Below are positions 4,631 through 59,109 of a stretch of 64,000 nucleotides of DNA, in pieces. A program made the translations under genes and the position numbers. Source of the stretch: Mobula hypostoma (lineage: Eukaryota); the NCBI RefSeq assembly GCF_963921235.1, contig NW_026948141.1, positions 62,001 to 126,000 on the forward strand. Direction: 5' to 3'. The notes beneath the pieces are model-generated. The model saw only the letters and a program-made list of their open reading frames with translations. It made no database searches and had not been told where the DNA came from. Position 1 is the stretch's first letter, and each line of letters begins with the position of its first letter.

Positions 4631-5748
4631 ACCACACGGTAGGTTTATTCAGAAAGTTAGAAGGCATGGGATCCAGGGAAGTTTGGCCAGGTGGATTCAG
4701 AATTGGCTTGCCTGCAGAAGGCAGAGGGTGGTGGTGGAGGGAGTACATTCAGATTGGAGGATTGTGACTAGTGGTGTCCCACAAGGATCCGTTCTGGGAC
4801 CTCTACTTTTCATGATTTTTATTAACGACCTGGATGTCGGGGTAGAAGGGTGGGTTGGCAAGTTTGCAGACGATACAAAGGTTGGTGGTGTTGCAGATAG
4901 TGTAGAGGATTGTCAAAGATTGCAGAGAGACATTGATAGGATGCAGAAGTGGCAGATGGAGTTCAACCCAGAGAAGTGTGAGGTGGTACACTTTGGAAGG
5001 CCAAACTCCAAGGCAGAGTACAAAGTAAATGGCAGGATACTTGGTAGTGTGGAGGAGCAGAGGGATCTGGGGGTACATGTCCACAGATCCCTGAAAGTTG
5101 CCTCACAGGTAGATAGGGTAGTTAAGAAAGCTTATGGGGTGTTAGCTTTCATAAGTCAAGGGATAGAGTTTAAGAGTCGCAATGTAATGATGCAGCTCTA
5201 TAAAACTCTGGTTAGGCCACACTTGGAGTACTGTGCCCAGTTCCGGTCACCTCACTATAGGAAGGATGTGGAAGCATTGGAAAGGGTACAGAGGAGATTT
5301 ACCAGGATGCTGCCTGGTTTAGAAAGTATGCATTATGATCAGAGATTAAGGGAGCTAGGGCTTTACTCTTTGGAGAGAAGGAGGATGAGAGGAGACATGA
5401 TAGAGTTGTACAAGATAATAAGAGGAATAGATAGAGTGGATGGCCAGCGCCTCTTCCCCAGGGCACCACTGCTCAATACCAGAGGACATGGCTTTAAGGT
5501 AAGGGGTGGGAAGTTGAAGGGGGATATTAGAGGAAGGTTTTTTACTCAGAGAGTGGTTGGTGCGTGGAATACACTGCTTGAGTCAGTGATGGAGGCAGAT
5601 ACACTAGTGAAGTTTAAGGAACTACTAGACAGGTATATGGAGGAATTTAAGGTGGGGGCTTATATGGGAGACAGAGTTTGAGGGTTGGCACAACATTGTG
5701 GGCCGAAGGGCCTGTACTGTGCTATACTATTCTATGTTCTATGTTCTA
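4631..5748 (+). mobile_element. Young 5'-truncated CR1 LINE with open RT C-terminus (ORF 4683-5681)
   Basis: [25 protein letters not shown] motifs; (TTCTATG)n tail; near-identical to 56409-57585. Confidence 0.95.
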
Positions 5749-29477: not shown

Positions 29478-31190
29478 ACACATACAAAATACTGGAGGAA
29501 CTCAGAAACATTTATGGAGCAGAATAAACATTTGATATTTTGGGCTGAAACTCTTCATCAGGACAGGAGCAGAAGCCAGCATAAGGTTAAGGAGGGGCAT
29601 AGCTGGCAGGTGATTGGTGAGACCAGATGAGTGGGGGGGGGGGGGTGGCTAGGTGAAGTCAGAAGCTGGGAAGTGATAGGTGGAAAAGCTAAAGGGCTGA
29701 GGAAGAAGGAATCTGATAGGAGTAGAGAGTGGGCTATGGACGAAAGGGAAAGGGAAGGGGAGCCAGAGGCAAATGATGGATAGGTGAGAAGAAAAGTAGG
29801 GGTAAGAAAGGAACAAGATTGAGGAATGCAAAAACAAGAGAAGGGAAAGGGGAAGAAATTACTGGAATTTAGAGAAATCAATGTTTACACCTTCAAGTTG
29901 GAGACTAGAAACATAGAAACATAGAAAATCTACAGCACAATACAGGCTCTTCGGCTCACAACGTTGTGCTGAACATGTCCCTACCTTAGAAATTACTGGG
30001 GTTACCCATAGCCCTCTATTTTTCTAAGCTCCATGTACCTATCCAAAAGTCTCTTAAAAGACCCTATCATTTCCGCCTCCACCACCGCCGCCAGCAGCCC
30101 ATTCCACGCACCCACCACTCTCTGCGTAAAAAACTTACCCTTGACAGCTCCTCTGTACCTTCTTCCAAGCACCTTAAAATTATGCCCTCTCGTGCTAGCC
30201 TTTCAGCCCTGGGAAAAAGCCTCTGACTATCCACATGGGCAATGCCTCTCATCATCTTGTACACCTCTTTCAGGTCACCTCTCATCCTCCGTCGCTCCAA
30301 GGAGAAAAGGCCGAGTTCACTCAACCTATTCTCATAAGACATGCTCCCCAATCCAGGCAACATCCTTGTAGATCTCCTCTGCACCCTTTCTATGGTTTCC
30401 ACATCCTTCCTGTAGTGAGGCGACTAGAACTGAGCACAGTACTCCAAGTGGGGTCTGACCAGGGTCCTATATACAGTACATAGCTGCAACATTACCTCTC
30501 GGCTCCTAAATTCAATTCCATGATTGATGAAGGCCAATACACCACATGCCTTCTTAACCACAGAGTCAACCTGCGCAGCTGCTTTGAGCGTCCTATGGAG
30601 TCAGACCCCAAGATCCCTCTGATCCTCCACACTGCCAAGAATCTTACCATTAATACTATATTCTGCCATTATATTTGACCTACCAAAATGAACCACTTCA
30701 CACTTATCTAGGTTGAACTCCATCTGCCACTTCTCAGCCCAGTTTTGCATCCTATCAATGTCCCACTGTAACCTCTGACAGCCCTCTCCCTCTACACTAT
30801 CCACAACACCCCCAACCTTTGTGTCATCAGCAAATTTACTAACCCATCCCTCTACTTCCTCATCCAGGTCATTTATAAAAATCACGAAGAGTAAGGGTCT
30901 CAGAACAGATCCCTGAGGAACACCACTGGTCACCGACCTCCATGCAGAATATGACCCGTCTACAACCACTCTTTGCCTTCTGTGGGCAAGCCATTTCTGG
31001 ATCCACAAAGCAAGGTCCCCTTGTATCCCATGCCTCCTTACTTTCTCAATAAGCCTTGCATGGGGTGCCTTATCAAATGCCTTGCTGAAATTCATAGCTA
31101 GCCGGATGGAATATGAGATGTTGCTCCTCCAATCTGAGTGGCCTCCACCTGACAATAGAGGAGGCCATGGCCACGTTGGAATGGAAAGAG
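29478..31190 (-). mobile_element. Penelope-like 3' fragment (GIY-YIG C-terminus + terminal repeat) split by a CR1 at 29909-31097
   Basis: Minus-strand HGLLYCQ..LRLEEQHLIF | SLQLEGVNIDFS is continuous across the CR1 (CTAG duplicated). Degenerate ctgatga motif at ~29560. CR1 ORFs 30067-30402 and 30601-31155. Confidence 0.8.
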
Positions 31191-32198
31191 GTTTTGTTTG
31201 TGTTGCTCAAGATTTCCATCATCTGTAGAATCTCTTATATTTATTTTGCTTCTTCAGGTCTAGTTGAACAACCCTGTGAAATTCTTTGAAGGATATGATC
31301 TTACCACTATTTATCACCAAAACTTACTGTTGTTTATCCCATCCAGATAAAAAATAGAAAGCATTCAAAATACTCAACAGATCAGTAGCATCTGAGCAAA
31401 AACTTCACATTGCAGGTCAAAGGCATTAGCTTTAAATTGCCGAAAGAGCTGGGGAGCTGGGGATTGTCACTGCAAGTCCCATGCCTGCCACGAGATATGC
31501 TGTTTACAAATTGCAGGGTTAATAGATTCATAAAGTTTCAGAACACTACAGCACAGAAGCAGGCTCTTTGGCCCGTCTAGTCCATGCTGAGCTATTAAGT
31601 ATCCCATTGACCTGCTCCTAGACCATCTCCCTCCATAATCCTCCCATCCATGTACCTATCCAAACTTCTCTTAAATGTTGAAATCAAACCTGCGTCCACC
31701 ACTTCCATTGGTAGCTCGTTCCATCCTCTAGGTGAAAAAATTCTCCTTCATGTTCCCCTTAAAGCCATGACCTCTACTTCTAGTCTCACCCATCCTCAGT
31801 GGAAAAAGCCTGCTGGATTTACCCTATTTATACCCTCATAATTTTATATTTTAATGAGGGTAATTACTGAGAAGGAGGAGACCAAAAGCCTGTGTGAAAC
31901 CTGAAGATGGTGCTCAATGAAATGGTCACCTAATCCTTCAGTCTGTGGGGTTAGTCCTTGAACTTCCAGGTACCTATTGCTTTAATTCTCCAGGCCACTT
32001 CCACATCTCTGGGGCCTTCTGCAAAGTTCTAGTGAGGCCCACAGCACCTCTTCTTTCCTCTGGACATGTTGCCATTATAGGCATTCGGTGAATTCAGATA
32101 CCTTGTTTCTTCTCTTTGTATCCGAACTGTCTAGTTCTCCCGTTTGTGTTTTCTGTCACCGCACGCTGTGTGGCAGATCTGATTGGTACTCCCAGCCT

Positions 32199-51179: not shown

Positions 51180-52121
51180 ATGCCTCCTGAGACGGTGATG
51201 TGCCTCTCATGTGAGATGTGGCAGTCTTGGGGGAACGCCCCTCTCCCGCAGAGTCACATCTGCCAGAAGTGCATACGGCTGGGCGATCTGGAAGATCGTG
51301 TAAGGAATCTGGAGCAGCAGCTGGATGACTTTCGACTCATAAGGGAGAATGAGGCAGTCATAAATGAGAGCTACAGGGAGGTAGTCACACCTAGGCTGTC
51401 GGAAGCAGGTCGTTGGGTGACAGTCAGAGGGGGGAAAGCGAAGGTGAGCAGATAGGTAGTGCAGAGCACCCTTGTAGCCATTCCCCTGAATAACAAGTTT
51501 ACCGTCCTGGATACTGTTGGCGGGGACGACCGACCAGGTGTGAGCCACGGTGGCAGGGCCTCCGGCGCTGAGTCTGACCCTGTGGTGCTGAAGGGTGGGA
51601 AGGAGAAGAGGAGAGCTGTCGTCATTGGAGACTCTATAGTCAGGGGAGCAGACAGGAGATTTTGTGGATGTGAGAAGGACACCCGCATGGTTTGTTGCCT
51701 CCCGGGTGCCAGGGTCCGGGATGTCTCTGACCAGGTGCACAACGTCCTGGTACAAGAGGGAAAGCAGCCAGAAGTCGTGATACATGTTGGTATCAATGAC
51801 ATAGGCAGGAAGAGGGATGAGGCCCTGAAGTGTGGGTTTCGGGAACTAGGCAGAAGGCTGAAGAACAGGACCTCAAGGGTGGCGTTCTCAGGATTGCTGC
51901 CAGTGCTACGTGACAGTGATGGTAAGAATTGGAGGAGATGGCAGTTGAATGCGTGGCTGAGGAGCTGGTGCAGGGTGCAGGGTTTTAGATTTTTGGATCA
52001 CTGGGATCTCTTCTGGGGAAGGTGGGACCTGTACAGATTGGATGGGTTGCACCTGAACTCGAGGGGGAGCAATATCCTTGCAGGTAGGTTTGCTAGCATG
52101 GTTCGGGAAGGTTTAAACTAA
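51180..52121 (+). pseudogene. CR1 ORF1: CxxC..CxxC zinc finger, coiled coil, SGNH esterase; one in-frame TAG at 51453
   Basis: CLSC...CQKC, LEDRVRNLEQQL, GDSIVR, PGAR, HVGIND, DGLHLN. Confidence 0.9.
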
Positions 52122-53971: not shown

Positions 53972-56403
53972 AGTAGTAGTGGTAGTAGTCATACTTTATT
54001 GATCCCGGTGGAAATTGGTTTTCGTTTCAGTTGTACCATTAATAATTAAACAGTAATAAAACCATAAATAGTTAAATAGTAATATGTAAATTATGCCAGG
54101 AGATAAGTCCAGGACCAGCCTATTAGCTCAGGGTGTCTGACCCTCCAAGGGAGGAGTTGTAAAGTTTGATGGCCACAGGCAGGAATGACTTCCTATGACG
54201 CTCTGTGTTGCATCTCAGTGAAATGAGTCTCTGGCTGAATGTACTCCTGTGCCCACCCAGTACATTATGTAGCGGATGGGAGACATTGTCCAAGATGGCC
54301 TGCAACTTAGACAGCATCCTCTTTTCAGACACCACCATGAGAGAGTCCAGTTCCATCCCCACAACATCACTGGCCTTACGAATGAGTTTGTTGATTCTGT
54401 TGGTGTCTGCTACCCTCAGCCTGCTGCCCCAGCACACAACAGCAAACATGATAGCACTGGCCACCACAGACTCGTAGAACATCCTCAGCATCGTCCAGCA
54501 GATGTTAAAGGACCTTAGTCTCCTCAGGAAATAGTGACGGCTCTGACCCTTCTTGTAGACAGCCTCAGTGTTCTTTGACCAGTCCAATTTATTGTCAATT
54601 TGTATCCCCAGGTATTTGTAATCTTCCACCATGTCCACACTGACCCCTGGATGAAAACAGGGGTCACCGGTACCTTAGCTCTCCTCAGGTCTACCACCAG
54701 CTCCTTAGTCTTTTTCACATTAAGCTGCAGATAATTCTGCTCACACCATGTGACAAAGTTTCGTACCGTAGCCCTGTACTCAGCCTCATCTCCCTTGCTG
54801 ATGCATCCAACTATGGCAGAGTCATCTGAAAACTTCTGAAGATGACAAGACTCTGTGCAGTAGTTGAAGTCCGAGGTGTAAATGGTGAAGAGAAAGGAAA
54901 ACAAGACAGTCCCCTGTGGAGCCCCAGTGCTGCTGATCACTCTGTCGGACACACAGTGTTGCAAGCACATGTACTGTGGTCTGCCAGTCAGGTAATCAAG
55001 AATCCATGACACCAGGAAAGCATCCACCTGCATCGCTGTCAGCTTCTCCCCCAGCACAGCAGGGCGGATAGTGTTGATCGCACTGGAGAAGTCAAAAAAC
55101 ATGACCCTCACAGTGCTCGCTGGCTTGTCCAGGTGGGCGTAGACACGGTTTAGCAGGTAGACGATGGCATCCTCAACTCCTAGTCGGGGCTGGTAGGCGA
55201 ATTGGAGGGGATCTAAGTGTGGTCTGACCATAGGCCAGAGCAGCTCCAGAACAAGTCTCTCCAGGGTCATCATGATGTGGGAGGTCAATGCCACTGGTCT
55301 GTAGTCATTGAGGCCGCTGGGGCGCGGTGTCTTCTGCACAGGGACGAGGCAGGATGTCTTCCACAGTACAGGAACCCTCCAGAGCCTCAGGCTCAGGTTG
55401 AAGACATGGTGAAGTACTCCACATAGTTGAGGGGCACAGGCTTTGAGCACCCTGGTACTGACACCATCCAGTCCTGCAGCCTTGCTCGGGTTGAGACGTT
55501 TCAGCTGTCTTCTCACCTGTTCAGCTGTGAAGCCCACCGGTGGTTTCGTGTGGGGAAGGGGTATAGTCTTGAGAGCAGGGTGGGGGACTGTGAGGAGGGG
55601 TAGGAGGGGAGAGTGGAATATGTGTTGGCTGGGGGCTGACAACAGATGACTCATGTGGGGGCTGGGCAAGGGCCACAATGTCAAATCTGTTAAAGAACAG
55701 GTTAAGTTCGTTGGCCCTGTCCACGCTGCCTTCAGCTCCTCTGTTGCTAGTTTGCCGGAACCCAGTGATGGTCCTCATCCCACTCCAGACCTATCTCATG
55801 TTGTTCTGCTGAAGTTTCCACTCAAGCTTCCTCCTGTACCTGTCTTTAGCCTCCCTGATCCTGGCTTTCAGATCCCTCTCTATTGCCCTCAGCTCCTCCC
55901 TATTTCCATCTTTAAACACCCTCTTTTTAGCGTTCAGGATATCCTTAATGTCCTTTATTACCCATGGCTTGTTATTTGAATAACAAAGGATAGTTCTTGT
56001 CGGAACATTGCAGTCCACACAGAAGTTGATGTAATCAGTGATGCACTCTGTGAGCCCATCAATGTCCTCTCCATGTGGCTCACAGAGTGTCTGCCAGTCT
56101 GTCACCTCAAAACAACCCTGGAGCGCCTCATTAAGCCTCCTCCGACCATTTCCTCACTGTCCTCGAGGTTGCAGGTTTACTCTTCACCAGAGGCCCGTAG
56201 CAGGGTTTTAGATGCACCAGGTTGTGATCTGACCTTCCCAATGGGGGGAGGGGAGAGGAGCTGTATGCATCCTTAACGTTAGCGTACATCAAATCCAGAG
56301 TCCTCTCCCCTCTGGTCATACAGCTCACATACTGCGTGAAGTTGGGCAGTCTTCTAGCCTTGGTTACATGGTTGAAGTCACCCGAGATGGTAATGAGGGC
56401 ACT
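53972..56403 (-). mobile_element. Young 5'-truncated Rex1/Babar LINE (APE C-terminus + RT)
   Basis: SGDFNH, SDHNLV, KAAGLDG, DYRPVALTS, FFDFSSA, TGAPQGTV, QKFSDD; AATAAA + (CTA)-like tail; CATTT at both ends (53967-71 / 56404-08). Confidence 0.95.
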
Positions 56404-58161
56404 CATTTGACAAGGTTCCAAATGGTAGTCTTATTCAGAAAGTCAGAAGGCATGGGATCCAGGGAAGTTTGGCCAGGTGGATTCAGAATTGGCTTGCTTG
56501 CAGTAGGCAGAGGGTCGTGGTGGAGGGAGTACATTCAGATTGGAGGGTTGTGACTAGTGGTGTCCTACAAGAATCTGTTCTGGGACCTCTACTTTTCGTG
56601 ATTTTTATTAACGACCTGGCTGTGGGGGTGGAAAGTGGGTTGGCAAGTTTGCAGACGACACAAAGGTTGGTGGTGTTGTAGATAGTGTAGAGGATTGTCA
56701 AAGATTGCAGAGAGACATTGATAGGATACATAGACATCTGTACATAGACAGATACATAGCCCATAGACATTGTGGGCTGAGAAGTGGCAGATGGAGTTCA
56801 ACCCGGAGAAGTGTGAGGTGGTACACTTTGGAAGGATAAACTCCAAGGCAGAGTACAAAGTAAATGGCAGGATACTTGGTAGTGTGGAGGAGCAGAGGGA
56901 TCTGGGGGTACATGTCCACAGATCCCTGAAAGTTGCCTCACAGGTAGATCGGGTAGTTAAGAAAGCTTATGGGGTGTTACCTTTCATAAGTCGAGGGGTT
57001 GAGTTTAAGAGTTGCGATGTAATGATGCAGCTCTATAAAACTCTGGTTAGGCCACACTTGGAGTACTGTGTCCAGTTCTGGTCGCCTCACTATAGGAAGG
57101 ATGTGGAAGCATTGGAAAGGGTACAGAGGAGATTTACCAGGATGCTGCCTGATTTAGAGAGTATGGATTATGATCAGAGATTACGGGAGCTAGGGCTTTA
57201 CTCTTTGGAGAGAAGGAAGATGAGAGGAGACATGATAGAGGTGTTCAAGATATTAAGAGGAATAGATAGAGTGGATAGCCAGCGCCTCTTCCCCAGGGCA
57301 CCTCTGCTCAATACAAGAGGACATGGCTTTAAGGTAAGGAGTGGGAAGTTCAAGGGGGATATTAGAGGAAGGTTTTTTACTCAGAGAGTGGTTGGTGCGT
57401 GGAATGCACTGCCTGAGTCAGTGGTGGAGGCAGATACACTAGTGAAGTTTAAGAGACTACTAGACAGGTATATGGAGGAATTTAAGATGGTGGGTTATAT
57501 GGGAGGCAAGGTTTGAGAATTGGCACAACATTGTGGGCTGAAGGGCCTGTACTGTGCTGTACTATTCTATGTTCTATGTTCTATGATCTTTGGACTGTGG
57601 CGGGAAACCAGAGCATCTCTCTTACCTTAAGTGTATGCCCTCTGGTATTATACATTTCAACTCTGGGGGAAAAGGTACCGTCTGTCTACTCTATCTACAT
57701 CTCTCATAATCTTGTAAACCTCTGTCAGATCTCCCCTCAGTCTCTGCCACTCCAGAGAAAACAACCAAAATTTGTCCAACCTCTTGTTATAGCTCCTACC
57801 CTCTAATCCAGTAAGTATCCTGGTAAACCACTTGTGCACCCTCCCCAAAACCATTCTAATTGAGTGACAGAATTTAGTTTATATTTATGAAAGGGATGTG
57901 GGGTTCACAGGCTGAGCCAGTGTTCAATTGTCCATCCCTAGCTGCCCTGGAGAAGATGGCTGTGAGCTGCCTTTTCAAACTCCTGCAGGCCTTGAGGTGT
58001 GGGCGGAATGCTGTTTCGGGGGTTATTTCCAGTGACTGTTCAACTTCAAGTTCAATTGTCATACAACCAAAGGAAACTACATTTGTCTGGGGCCAAGGTG
58101 CAAAACACAGAACCATCGCTCACACACAGCACACAGTGCATATCGCACATATCACACATAT

Positions 58162-58688
58162 GATGATGGCTGGTTCTTTATTTGTGAAGATCAGGAGGGA
58201 ACTCCATCGCTATAGGACTTTTCTTCCTGCCTGCGCTGCATAGGTTTATAGTGGCGATTGGTGTGCACGGACCGATTCCACTCTTTAGGCCAGGGGACAT
58301 TCCCCAATGGCACAGTGAGCTGCAGCGACTGCAAGGCTGTAGGTCGAGTATCGGAGTTTTCCTTCTCCGAGAGACTGCCTGGCACAGCCAACAAATCCCA
58401 TCTACCCAGGTTTGGAATCGGAGTTGTCCTTCTCCTAGCCAAGGCTGATGAGCCCACCCAGTAATACTGCTGGATACTCGGTCGCGTCATCAGATAGTAA
58501 ACTCAGTAAGAACAGGGACGCCACGTGAAGGCGTTGCTATGGGCACAGTCGTGTAGGAGAGGCCATATGCGAGTGACCTCCTGCGTAGCAAACCTAACAG
58601 TGATCCTACAGCTGGAAAAGAGGGGCTATGGGGGTGCTTTACCTTCCTTAAGTGAGCAGGACATCCAGCCCAAGGCTCACCTGTCCCC
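58162..58688 (-). mobile_element. ORF-less RTE-related short element, family B, apparently full-length (~527 bp)
   Basis: Two ggagaagga(a/c)aactccgat motifs; AATAAA...(CAT)n tail; imperfect TSD at(ca/ag)cacatat on both sides. Confidence 0.7.
58494..58688 (-). ncRNA. Candidate HDV/CPEB3-like self-cleaving ribozyme (P4-less)
   Basis: P1 GGGGAC/GUCCCU with G1.U wobble; P3 GCC/GGC; L3 UUCACGU; GU after P1'; J4/2 CUGA; P2 AUAGCAAC/GUUUACUAU. G1 coincides with the element's 5' end. Confidence 0.7.
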
Positions 58689-59109
58689 ATAGCACATATA
58701 ATTATAGCAAGAAAATAAACACAGATACAAAAAATAACAATAGTACTAATAGTATTAAAAAATAATAATCTAGCCCTAGTGTCTGAATGGCTTGGCCTGT
58801 AAATTGACGGTGCATGGGATGTTGTCCTGGAGCTTCTTGTTTGTAAGAACAGTTCCGCAGCCGTTCCAAATCTCACGCAATGCAGCCACAGACAGAGAAA
58901 ATCCAGGTTGTCTCCCACCGAACAAACACTGGAGAGCGGCACTGACAGGAGAAGCCAGCTTTCAACCCAGCGCGGAATCCAGCAGCACACAGCCAGCTCT
59001 CACGTCTCCTTCCCCGAGACCACAACTGGCAACCCCAGTACATAAATGAGGCCTGTTCCACACCACAACCAAGGCCACGCGGCTACCCTGCTGTTGATTT
59101 GACCAATGA

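Follow-up and report, generated by a model that had tools for sequence, protein, structure and literature searches.

A probable minimal hepatitis delta virus-like ribozyme, bearing a long J1/2 insert, that heads a non-autonomous LINE derivative in Mobula hypostoma

The 64,000-nucleotide (nt) stretch of Mobula hypostoma DNA analysed here (contig NW_026948141.1, positions 62,001 to 126,000; hereafter the window) carries on its minus strand, at 58161..58688, one copy of a dispersed repeat that lacks open reading frames (ORFs) and whose copies share a sharp 5′ boundary. What sets that boundary is the question raised by this locus, and a first-pass annotation had proposed that it is a ribozyme related to those of hepatitis delta virus (HDV) and CPEB3 and lacking helix P4. 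We consider it probable from sequence comparison that the module is a genuine HDV-like ribozyme of minimal form, with a core of the CPEB3 type and a J1/2 of 142 nt, standing at the 5′ end of a non-autonomous derivative of a long interspersed nuclear element (LINE), because its first base, G1, is the start of the repeat, the surroundings of loop L3 fit the CPEB3 consensus, and its relatives covary. It is the relatives outside this genome that, at the level of sequence, decide the matter. For annotation, a ribozyme head would explain the precise 5′ end of the repeat family without a promoter.

The candidate ribozyme and the repeat that it heads

The copy, the candidate ribozyme and its parts are arranged as follows.

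58161..58688, minus strand: whole copy of the ORF-less retroelement, 528 bp (BLAST to 29 other genomic copies)
58494..58688, minus strand: candidate HDV-like ribozyme, minimal and P4-less, whose J1/2 is long (sequence, our own descriptor, covariance model, cross-lineage table)
58683..58688, minus strand: P1 5′ strand GGGGAC; G58688 is G1, with cleavage predicted 5′ of G58688 (pairs 6/6 with 58514-58519)
58541..58682, minus strand: J1/2 insert, 142 nt (family alignment)
58533..58540, minus strand: P2 5′ strand AUAGCAAC, AUAGCAA(C) (family and cross-lineage alignment)
58530..58532, minus strand: P3 5′ strand GCC (cmscan alignment, cross-lineage table)
58523..58529, minus strand: L3 UUCACGU, the same sequence as L3 in the Rfam CPEB3 consensus (cmscan alignments)
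58520..58522, minus strand: P3 3′ strand GGC (cmscan, cross-lineage table)
58514..58519, minus strand: P1 3′ strand GUCCCU; U58514 pairs with G1 as the G1·U wobble (sequence, cross-lineage table)
58512..58513, minus strand: GU after P1′, its G the presumed P1.1 partner of the L3 C (kept in 6/6 lineages)
58507..58511, minus strand: linker UCUUA, 5 nt, in place of P4 (5–7 nt in 6/6 lineages)
58503..58506, minus strand: J4/2 CUGA, in which C58506 is the candidate catalytic cytosine (C-N-R-A kept in 6/6 lineages)
58494..58502, minus strand: P2 3′ strand GUUUACUAU, with A in the window copy where the family majority has G (family alignment)

Every minus-strand coordinate that the first-pass annotation gave, from P1 through P2′, matches the sequence. 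P1, which in HDV-like ribozymes extends 6–7 bp from the first base after the cleavage site, has six pairs here and opens with G1·U; P2 (~7 bp) crosses P1 to give a nested double pseudoknot; the 3-bp P3 closes an L3 of the 7–8-nt class with the U.C..CG pattern; and J4/2 carries C-N-R-A directly before P2′, which is the pattern of the published HDV-like descriptor. The window copy has only the 5-nt linker where a P4 hairpin would stand. Its P1 (6/6), P3 (3/3), L3, GU and J4/2 are intact, and the P1.1 C–G position is paired in 87% of family copies, an invariant pair that is hence uninformative either way. J1/2 is ~160 nt in most copies of the family, and the subfamily of the window copy carries a deletion of ~18 nt within it. 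Most HDV-like ribozymes have a P1 of 6 or 7 bp and a P2 of about 7 bp (PMC4908430).

A search of the animal's own genome (3.48 Gb) with a 531-nt element query gave 497 first-look candidates, or about 300–500 candidate copies starting at G1; 40 were scored, at 73–86% identity. Among 30 loci compared by BLAST, 20 of the 29 other than the window copy align in a single piece from about G1 to the 3′ end, across the deletion junction described below. Alignment A1 of 54 non-redundant 5′ ends (ten of them from copies that are 5′-truncated or start-less) has a consensus that opens GGGGAC after a flank whose columns are not conserved, and G58688 is the first base of the repeat. Copies diverge from each other just upstream of G1, and target-site duplications adjoin G1 wherever they are clear (L014, L020, L021 and L030) and do so approximately in the window copy and in L002. 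Two copies have one to three extra bases at the 5′ end (T in L007, GTT in L004), and two others, L013 and L016, show microhomology with the G-run. The divergence upstream of G1 and the clear duplications uphold the proposal that the ribozyme defines the 5′ end of the element. The duplication described for the window copy itself stands in part: G1 is the first base inside an approximate duplication, but the match is imperfect, at about 9–11 of 12 positions, and duplications are clearer in L007, L014, L020, L021 and L030.

58689..58700, minus strand: 5′ flank, likely one copy of the imperfect target-site duplication (compared with the 3′ flank, 58149-58160)

Copies of the family terminate in ...GAACCAGCCATCATCA followed by CAT/ATC repeats, an end that they share with a longer element. 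Long forms of ~4.0 kb lie at L048:838-4865 and L050:689-4611, and the short element consists of the first ~487 nt and the last ~42 nt of the long form, with the 3.47 kb between them missing; the window copy matches L048:838-1359 plus 4826-4865. Downstream of the candidate ribozyme it therefore divides into two parts.

58202..58493, minus strand: rest of the 5′ untranslated region (UTR) of the parent LINE, kept (collinear with L048:~1030-1359)
58161..58201, minus strand: last ~41 nt of the parent LINE 3′ end with its CAT-repeat tail, ending ...GAACCAGCCATCATCA (L048:4826-4865, L050:4570-4611)

The long form encodes a reverse transcriptase (RT; RVT_1, PF00078, E 1e-17) whose nearest solved structures are L1 ORF2p, ahead of R2. 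Its homologues are proteins of ~1050 aa with an apurinic/apyrimidinic (AP) endonuclease and RT on contigs of 3.5–4.4 kb, the best of them 70% identical and from lancelet, and an AP endonuclease domain was not detected in 39 ORF pieces of three decayed genomic LINE copies. RTE-clade LINEs are elements of ~3–4 kb whose single ORF encodes both an AP endonuclease and an RT; we refer to the parent as a LINE with an RTE-like layout, a label taken from its size, the order of its domains and its microsatellite-like tail and not from a clade tree. A short interspersed nuclear element transcribed by RNA polymerase III was rejected as an identity for the repeat, which has no tRNA-like head, contains no Rfam small-RNA family in the region, and is collinear with the LINE ends; ARAGORN finds no tRNA-like gene in 58000-58900. 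As its LINE ends, the one-piece copies and the lack of a tRNA-like head indicate, we take the window copy to be an amplified, ORF-less internal-deletion derivative of a LINE. The ORF-less non-autonomous retroelement first described at this locus is thus confirmed, with two LINE ends joined and the deletion form amplified in 20 of 29 loci.

Relatives of the element are also present in three sequence runs with the same species label (guessed to be RNA, assembled as contigs; 80% likeness), in which neither starts nor ends are seen. In each of the three, one contig of 680–750 nt over a relative of 58204-58438 has a high depth (172, 35 and 45), far above that of the ribozyme part. A contig joint of low depth that skips 58147-58748 has one side of just 28 nt and was not used.

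Relatives of the core in other lineages

Metagenome contigs scanned with an alignment of the LINE proteins returned 80 loci. A core pattern, consisting of a 3-bp Watson–Crick P3 around an HDV-type L3 (U-Y-C-N-C-G-H) and applied to both strands, matches 21 times in these loci, and 13 of the 21 are coding-strand matches located upstream of the ORF match, a space that makes up 85.0 kb of 621.5 kb (13.7%; binomial p = 4e-7). HDV-type cores are 10-fold enriched in the 5′ UTRs of these related LINEs. In several loci a P4 hairpin comes after the core, and one of these, L138:87-160, aligns end to end with HDV_ribozyme (RF00094) at 36.4 bits, against a cut-off of 50. Four loci (L147, L141, L079 and L122) resemble the window copy in having no P4, and L134 is a further relative.

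We built a covariance model of the core, comprising P2 and P3, from seven seed sequences including the window copy, and ran it over the 80 loci, the window, and eight loci of a second repeat family in the same genome (family B, described below). It gives 15 matches at E ≤ 1. Its sole match in the window is the ribozyme site at 73.6 bits, a score that follows by construction from the site being a seed row; L134:2196-2244, with a long J1/2, scores 38.1 bits. Two matches were set aside as not being ribozyme copies, L144:1390-1428, which lies inside an ORF match and lacks P3 and L3 (20 bits), and L120:796-815, which is partial. Whole-ribozyme alignments made with MAFFT (A3 and A6) were out of structural register and were replaced by an alignment fitted to the model and by a table that a script built from explicit coordinates for six lineages.

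Window: P1/P1′ GGGGAC/GUCCCU; P2/P2′ AUAGCAA/UUACUAU; P3/P3′ GCC/GGC; L3 UUCACGU; J4/2 CUGA; J1/2 142 nt
Family B: P1/P1′ GGGGCC/GGCCCU; P2/P2′ GGUAGAA/UUCUACC; P3/P3′ GCG/CGC; L3 UUCACGU; J4/2 CCAA; J1/2 2 nt
L147: P1/P1′ GGGGGG/CCCCCU; P2/P2′ AUAGCAG/CUGCUAU; P3/P3′ ACC/GGU; L3 UUCCCGU; J4/2 CUAA; J1/2 283–284 nt
L141: P1/P1′ GGGGGG/CCCCCU; P2/P2′ ACCACAC/GUGUGGU; P3/P3′ GCC/GGC; L3 UUCUCGU; J4/2 CGGA; J1/2 46 nt
L122: P1/P1′ GGGUGU/ACACCU; P2/P2′ GAUAGCU/AGCUAUC; P3/P3′ ACC/GGU; L3 UUCACGU; J4/2 CAAA; J1/2 42 nt
L134: P1/P1′ GGGGGC/GCCACU; P2/P2′ AUAGCAA/UUGCUUU; P3/P3′ GCC/GGU; L3 UUCACAU; J4/2 CAAA; J1/2 164 nt

Across the six lineages, pairs form in 35 of the 36 P1 cells; positions 4, 5 and 6 have two, three and three pair types respectively, and position 1 is G·U in every lineage. 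P2 has 40 of its 42 cells paired and two to four pair types at every position, and P3 has all 18 of its cells paired. The GU after P1′, a stretch of 5–7 nt replacing P4, and C-N-R-A in J4/2 are each present in six of six. P1 remains paired whether J1/2 measures 2, 42, 46, 142, 164 or 283–284 nt. The architecture that the first-pass annotation called P4-less and HDV/CPEB3-like thus recurs in each lineage with compensatory changes in P1, P2 and P3. These changes, together with the fixed L3, GU and C-N-R-A and the pairing of P1 over so wide a range of insert lengths, argue against a chance resemblance in which the site is ordinary LINE 5′ UTR and the uniform 5′ end comes from an internal promoter at G1, as does the 10-fold enrichment of cores in related 5′ UTRs; we regard that explanation as very improbable.

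The relationships among these loci are of several kinds. The J1/2 sequence is recognisably common to L147, L134 and the window family, and in L147 and L134 the P1 strands lie at the homologous place and the changes in P1′ match. L141 and L079 are two loci of one family that diverge just upstream of the G-run of P1. In L122, G1 stands directly after a (TGTA)n tract, and the tract also ends the element. Tracts of (TGTA)n/(ATGT)n flank the L122 element at either end (L122:4-52 and L122:4325-4372), an arrangement that fits either tandem insertion or a microsatellite target. A separate conserved stretch (CCCTATT CAG ... CTG CTYTCT ...), found with the loose descriptor defined below at L104:~418, L120:~1357 and L139:~728, does not have an HDV-type L3 and may be a conserved coding or UTR motif.

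The model-fitted alignment (A8) has 15 rows, among them the doubtful L144 and L120 matches. In it 96.9% of cells are paired compared with 73.1 ± 2.9 in shuffled alignments (0 of 500 reach the observed value), the covariation score is 0.518 compared with 0.195 (0/500), and 34 cells are changed on both sides where 12 are expected (0/500); these cell counts are inflated, however, by the fitting of A8 to the structure and by seven near-identical family-B rows. Nine of its 11 pairs change on both sides (3/500), including seven of the eight P2 pairs, and P3 is paired in 100% of cells.

Likeness to the CPEB3 ribozyme had been part of the first proposal, and the core described there (UUCACGU, with GU after P1′) agrees with the Rfam consensus lines. 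When a 66-nt core from the window is compared with 4227 Rfam families, the best is CPEB3_ribozyme (RF00622), whose model positions 18–41 align through P2, P3 and L3, at 11.6 bits (E 0.66), below the RF00622 gathering score of 35. A search of the whole genome with RF00622 lists 43 matches at E ≤ 10 among 59 candidates scored, and ten of the 43 are over the cut-off, each of ~63 nt and on many contigs. These led to family B, of which we fetched eight loci in the same genome (L152:73-124, L153, L154, L155, L156, L157, L158 on the minus strand, and L159), and all eight reach the cut-off, at 36.4–43.8 bits. The CPEB3-likeness is in this way substantiated by a sister family, whose scores are a further difficulty for chance resemblance.

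Family B, another dispersed repeat family, is headed by a compact, P4-less, ribozyme-like module of ~52 nt whose J1/2 is 2 nt. Its copies align from a common start, (G)GGGCC, and differ upstream (alignment A5). The P4 stretch, 21 nt in the RF00622 model, corresponds to 7 nt in family B, which by manual count is identical to the RF00622 consensus at 37 of ~46 aligned positions outside P4. In three of the eight loci (L152, L153 and L159) the shared sequence continues downstream, and in L152 it reads as an ORF that weakly matches an endonuclease family (E 1e-4; 22.6 bits against a cut-off of 24.5). The window family is most readily understood as that minimal core again, its P1 and P2 set apart by a large insert. 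In L154-L158, only the first 75–110 nt are shared and unrelated sequence follows (A5 columns ~175–200 onward), which looks like 3′-side truncation or chimeras and is unusual for LINE copies.

One reading of family B is that the mammalian CPEB3 ribozyme descends from a LINE-borne lineage, a 5′ end of the family-B type having landed in an intron and been kept. We put this forward tentatively, as a possibility that is less likely than its opposite; it is entertained because family B is multi-copy, starts at a repeat boundary, matches RF00622 over its full length and has an endonuclease-like ORF.

Limits of the fold and alternative readings

Several observations weigh against a ribozyme at this site, in addition to the sub-threshold CPEB3 score and the inflated A8 counts given above. 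A sharp 5′ end is also expected from an internal promoter initiating at G1. Neither Rfam search helps: the whole window has no match at gathering thresholds, and a scan of 57900-59100 at E ≤ 10 returns no HDV-like family. (CrcZ and SOX2OT_exon3, listed in the latter scan, were judged to be chance matches.) A loose descriptor, requiring a P1 of 6–7 bp starting with G and ending on U, a 3-bp P3, an L3 of 6–8 nt, C-N-R-A, at least six of seven P2 pairs, J1/2 of up to 260 nt and a P4 region of up to 120 nt, has 173 and 157 redundant matches on the two strands of the 64-kb window, and a P4-less descriptor run on unrelated LINE loci (2 × 311 kb) matches 73 and 109 distinct sites. Such loose descriptors match about once per 1–3 kb, and we rejected our own HDV descriptors as evidence because they are too permissive; at the element site ours gives a single match, with G1 = 58688.

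The J1/2 insert is similarly unremarkable. The 142 nt have a predicted folding energy of -45.4 kcal/mol compared with a shuffle mean of -44.5 (z = -0.24), so that the predicted fold, three hairpins, is no stabler than shuffles, and RNAalifold run on the family J1/2, with the ten 5′-truncated or start-less copies dropped, yields a weak consensus of -3.2. In the minimum free energy structure of the 199-nt stretch, computed with nested pairs only, G1–G3 pair with a CCC just 5′ of P2 and not with P1′. This alternative helix, between 58688-58681 (GGG.ACAG) and 58548-58541 (CUGU.CCC) on the minus strand, could in the model be a rival to P1 or seal off the J1/2 domain. Taken by itself, the fold does no better than chance, and pairing potential across a 140-nt gap, relied on alone, would often mislead. 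Since the descriptors are promiscuous and J1/2 is unremarkable, support must come from context and comparison.

Within the genomic family, 84.6% of pair cells in A1 are standard pairs, compared with 31–46% when the partners are slid by one to three columns. The 54 copies show no significant covariation, however, with 22 of 500 shuffles reaching the paired percentage and 86 of 500 the covariation score. We attribute this to the neutral decay of old copies, mostly by CpG transitions, which leaves the test without power. The covariation check suggested for this element gives compensatory changes in P1, P2 and P3 across lineages and, for want of power, no significant signal among genomic copies. 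A seemingly compensatory P1 in L003 (GGAGAC/GUCUCU) was dropped, being a single insertion with one 99% duplicate. L003 (G000:C48:125833-126101) has its 99% identical twin, including 10 nt of flank, at G000:C49:103744-104012; C47-C49 are neighbouring contigs that could be haplotigs or segmental duplicates.

The permissive descriptors, the ordinary J1/2 fold, the silence of Rfam at gathering and the missing within-family signal are all what chance resemblance would predict; the six-lineage comparison and family B are not, and the comparison is what leads us to prefer a ribozyme. A different alternative accepts that the fold is selected and holds that the long-J1/2 family cleaves little or not at all, the structure serving in protein binding or translation initiation and the 5′ end being set otherwise. 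We think this unlikely, if less so than chance. Such roles have been proposed for R2 and L1Tc: PMC6765202 reports binding of the R2 protein to a pseudoknot within the extended ribozyme of R2, and that HDV-like ribozymes may work as internal ribosome entry sites do. Long unstructured J1/2 linkers greatly slow catalysis, and those without a stabilising 'pinch' cleave slowly (PMC4908430), a point that also tells against cleavage here given a J1/2 without above-chance stability and the competing G1–G3 pairing that is predicted. On the other hand, every lineage preserves G1·U, the sequence of L3 and C-N-R-A, the 5′ ends of copies coincide with the predicted scission site, and the ORF-less derivative amplified with the module retained although it holds nothing to be translated.

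A ribozyme that is active in the family could still be dead at this locus. The window copy is old, being 73–86% identical to its relatives, and its P2 has a C × A mismatch and a bulged U, leaving six of seven positions paired; the family majority has G at the mismatch site and thereby seven contiguous pairs (7/7). With the ~18-nt deletion in J1/2, these features suggest an inert fossil that neither cleaves nor has a present function at the locus, and we place the probability of this only slightly below even. Its core positions otherwise match the family majority at all but that one P2 pair. Moreover, the P2′ A variant and the J1/2 deletion are common to the window copy and L002, a separate insertion whose flanks are not homologous, and therefore a source copy with both features still retrotransposed. 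The window copy may still cleave in vitro, with odds that we put near even.

Mechanism and known systems

By analogy with known retroelements, we infer catalysis, read-through transcription and mobilisation in trans for the preferred reading, that of a 5′-terminal ribozyme. The element, presumably without a promoter of its own, would be transcribed within a longer host or neighbouring transcript, in which the ribozyme would fold into its nested double pseudoknot. C58506 in J4/2 would then act in scission just 5′ of G58688, and the released RNA would start exactly at G1. The RT of the ~4-kb parent LINE, acting in trans, would recognise the common ~41-nt 3′ end with its CAT-repeat tail and copy the RNA into new sites, giving copies that all start at G1 and are flanked by short target-site duplications.

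The 5′ ribozymes of R2, L1Tc, baggins and RTE are not known to lack a P4. Like the candidate here, those of R2, L1Tc/NARTc, baggins and RTE occupy the first bases of the element and are presumed to release it from a co-transcript. RNAs of R2, L1Tc, baggins and RTE have their 5′ ends cut free from a co-transcript by HDV-like ribozymes; RTE and baggins elements are without a promoter of their own; and R2 ribozymes are ~184 nt with an extended insert (all from PMC6765202). A non-autonomous partner with the same ribozyme also has a precedent, NARTc carrying that of L1Tc (PMC3383444).

There is a close likeness to the CPEB3 ribozyme (RF00622), with which the window copy shares the double pseudoknot, the L3 UUCACGU, a GC-rich 3-bp P3, a G-rich P1 with G1·U, the GU after P1′ and C-N-R-A in J4/2. 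It differs in having 5 nt where the RF00622 model has its 21-nt P4 stretch and a J1/2 of 142 nt in place of a few nt, and whereas the CPEB3 ribozyme is a single conserved locus within an intron of the mammalian CPEB3 gene, the window family is dispersed and multi-copy at retroelement 5′ ends. The short linker in place of P4 is shared with minimal HDV-like ribozymes (drzs), namely drz-Mtgn-1 with its relatives and the phage theta ribozymes. According to PMC10879173, minimal drzs without P4 still cleave, and hence P4 is not required for membership; drz-Mtgn-1 has the order L3 UUCCCGU (as in L147), linker, CUAA and P2′, which is the order in the window; and the eukaryotic, bacterial or viral origin of minimal drzs and their roles were called open in 2024. 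Minimal drzs differ in their 2-nt J1/2 and in their occurrence in phage or metagenomic DNA, often beside tRNA genes, whereas the window ribozyme has a long J1/2 and lies at the 5′ end of a chordate LINE derivative.

Large natural J1/2 domains exist, and a stable J1/2 structure speeds cleavage (PMC4908430). The ribozyme drz-Agam-2-1, from a mosquito, likewise has an extra domain between P1 and P2, in which a stable P1.2 helix together with a 12-bp P2 'pinch' P1 and P2 together (PMC4908430); the window copy, in contrast, has a J1/2 without above-chance stability and a P2 of 7–8 bp.

HDV-like ribozymes at LINE 5′ ends, P4-less forms and long-J1/2 forms are thus each already known separately. A literature search whose scope did not extend to the key primary papers on RTE and HDV-like ribozymes gave no paper tying P4-less drzs to eukaryotic retrotransposons and no description of retroelement-borne CPEB3-type ribozymes. 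In the surveyed portions of the literature, phages and unassigned metagenomic DNA are the only sources linked with the minimal form; here the P4-less form appears to head LINEs and ORF-less derivatives in a chordate genome and in elements of several other organisms, which would give minimal drzs a eukaryotic home. If the mammalian CPEB3 ribozyme does descend from such a lineage, minimal drzs would take in a large class, so far unassigned, at the head of RTE-like LINEs in chordates and marine animals. J1/2 inserts of 2 to ~283 nt would constitute a natural series for asking what distance between P1 and P2 catalysis can tolerate, and multi-copy retroelement relatives of the CPEB3 ribozyme, through family B, would make the origin of the mammalian ribozyme testable.

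Elsewhere in the window, a tandem array of a 48-bp unit extends from 35594 to about 43100, with more than 100 copies at 94–100% identity and a GC content of 58–61%, and it creates many long spurious open frames. Other LINE remnants lie at 4632-5681 and 51456-52121 on the plus strand and at 30601-31206 and 54524-55774, the last with 54123-54674, on the minus strand. Among the ORFs of these remnants, three have RVT_1, one of them followed by an ALKBH8_N-type C-terminal domain, and another has a GDSL-lipase/esterase-type domain. For a 416-aa RT of the window remnants, the Atlas points to chordate LINE clusters, and the host thus carries LINEs of chordate type.

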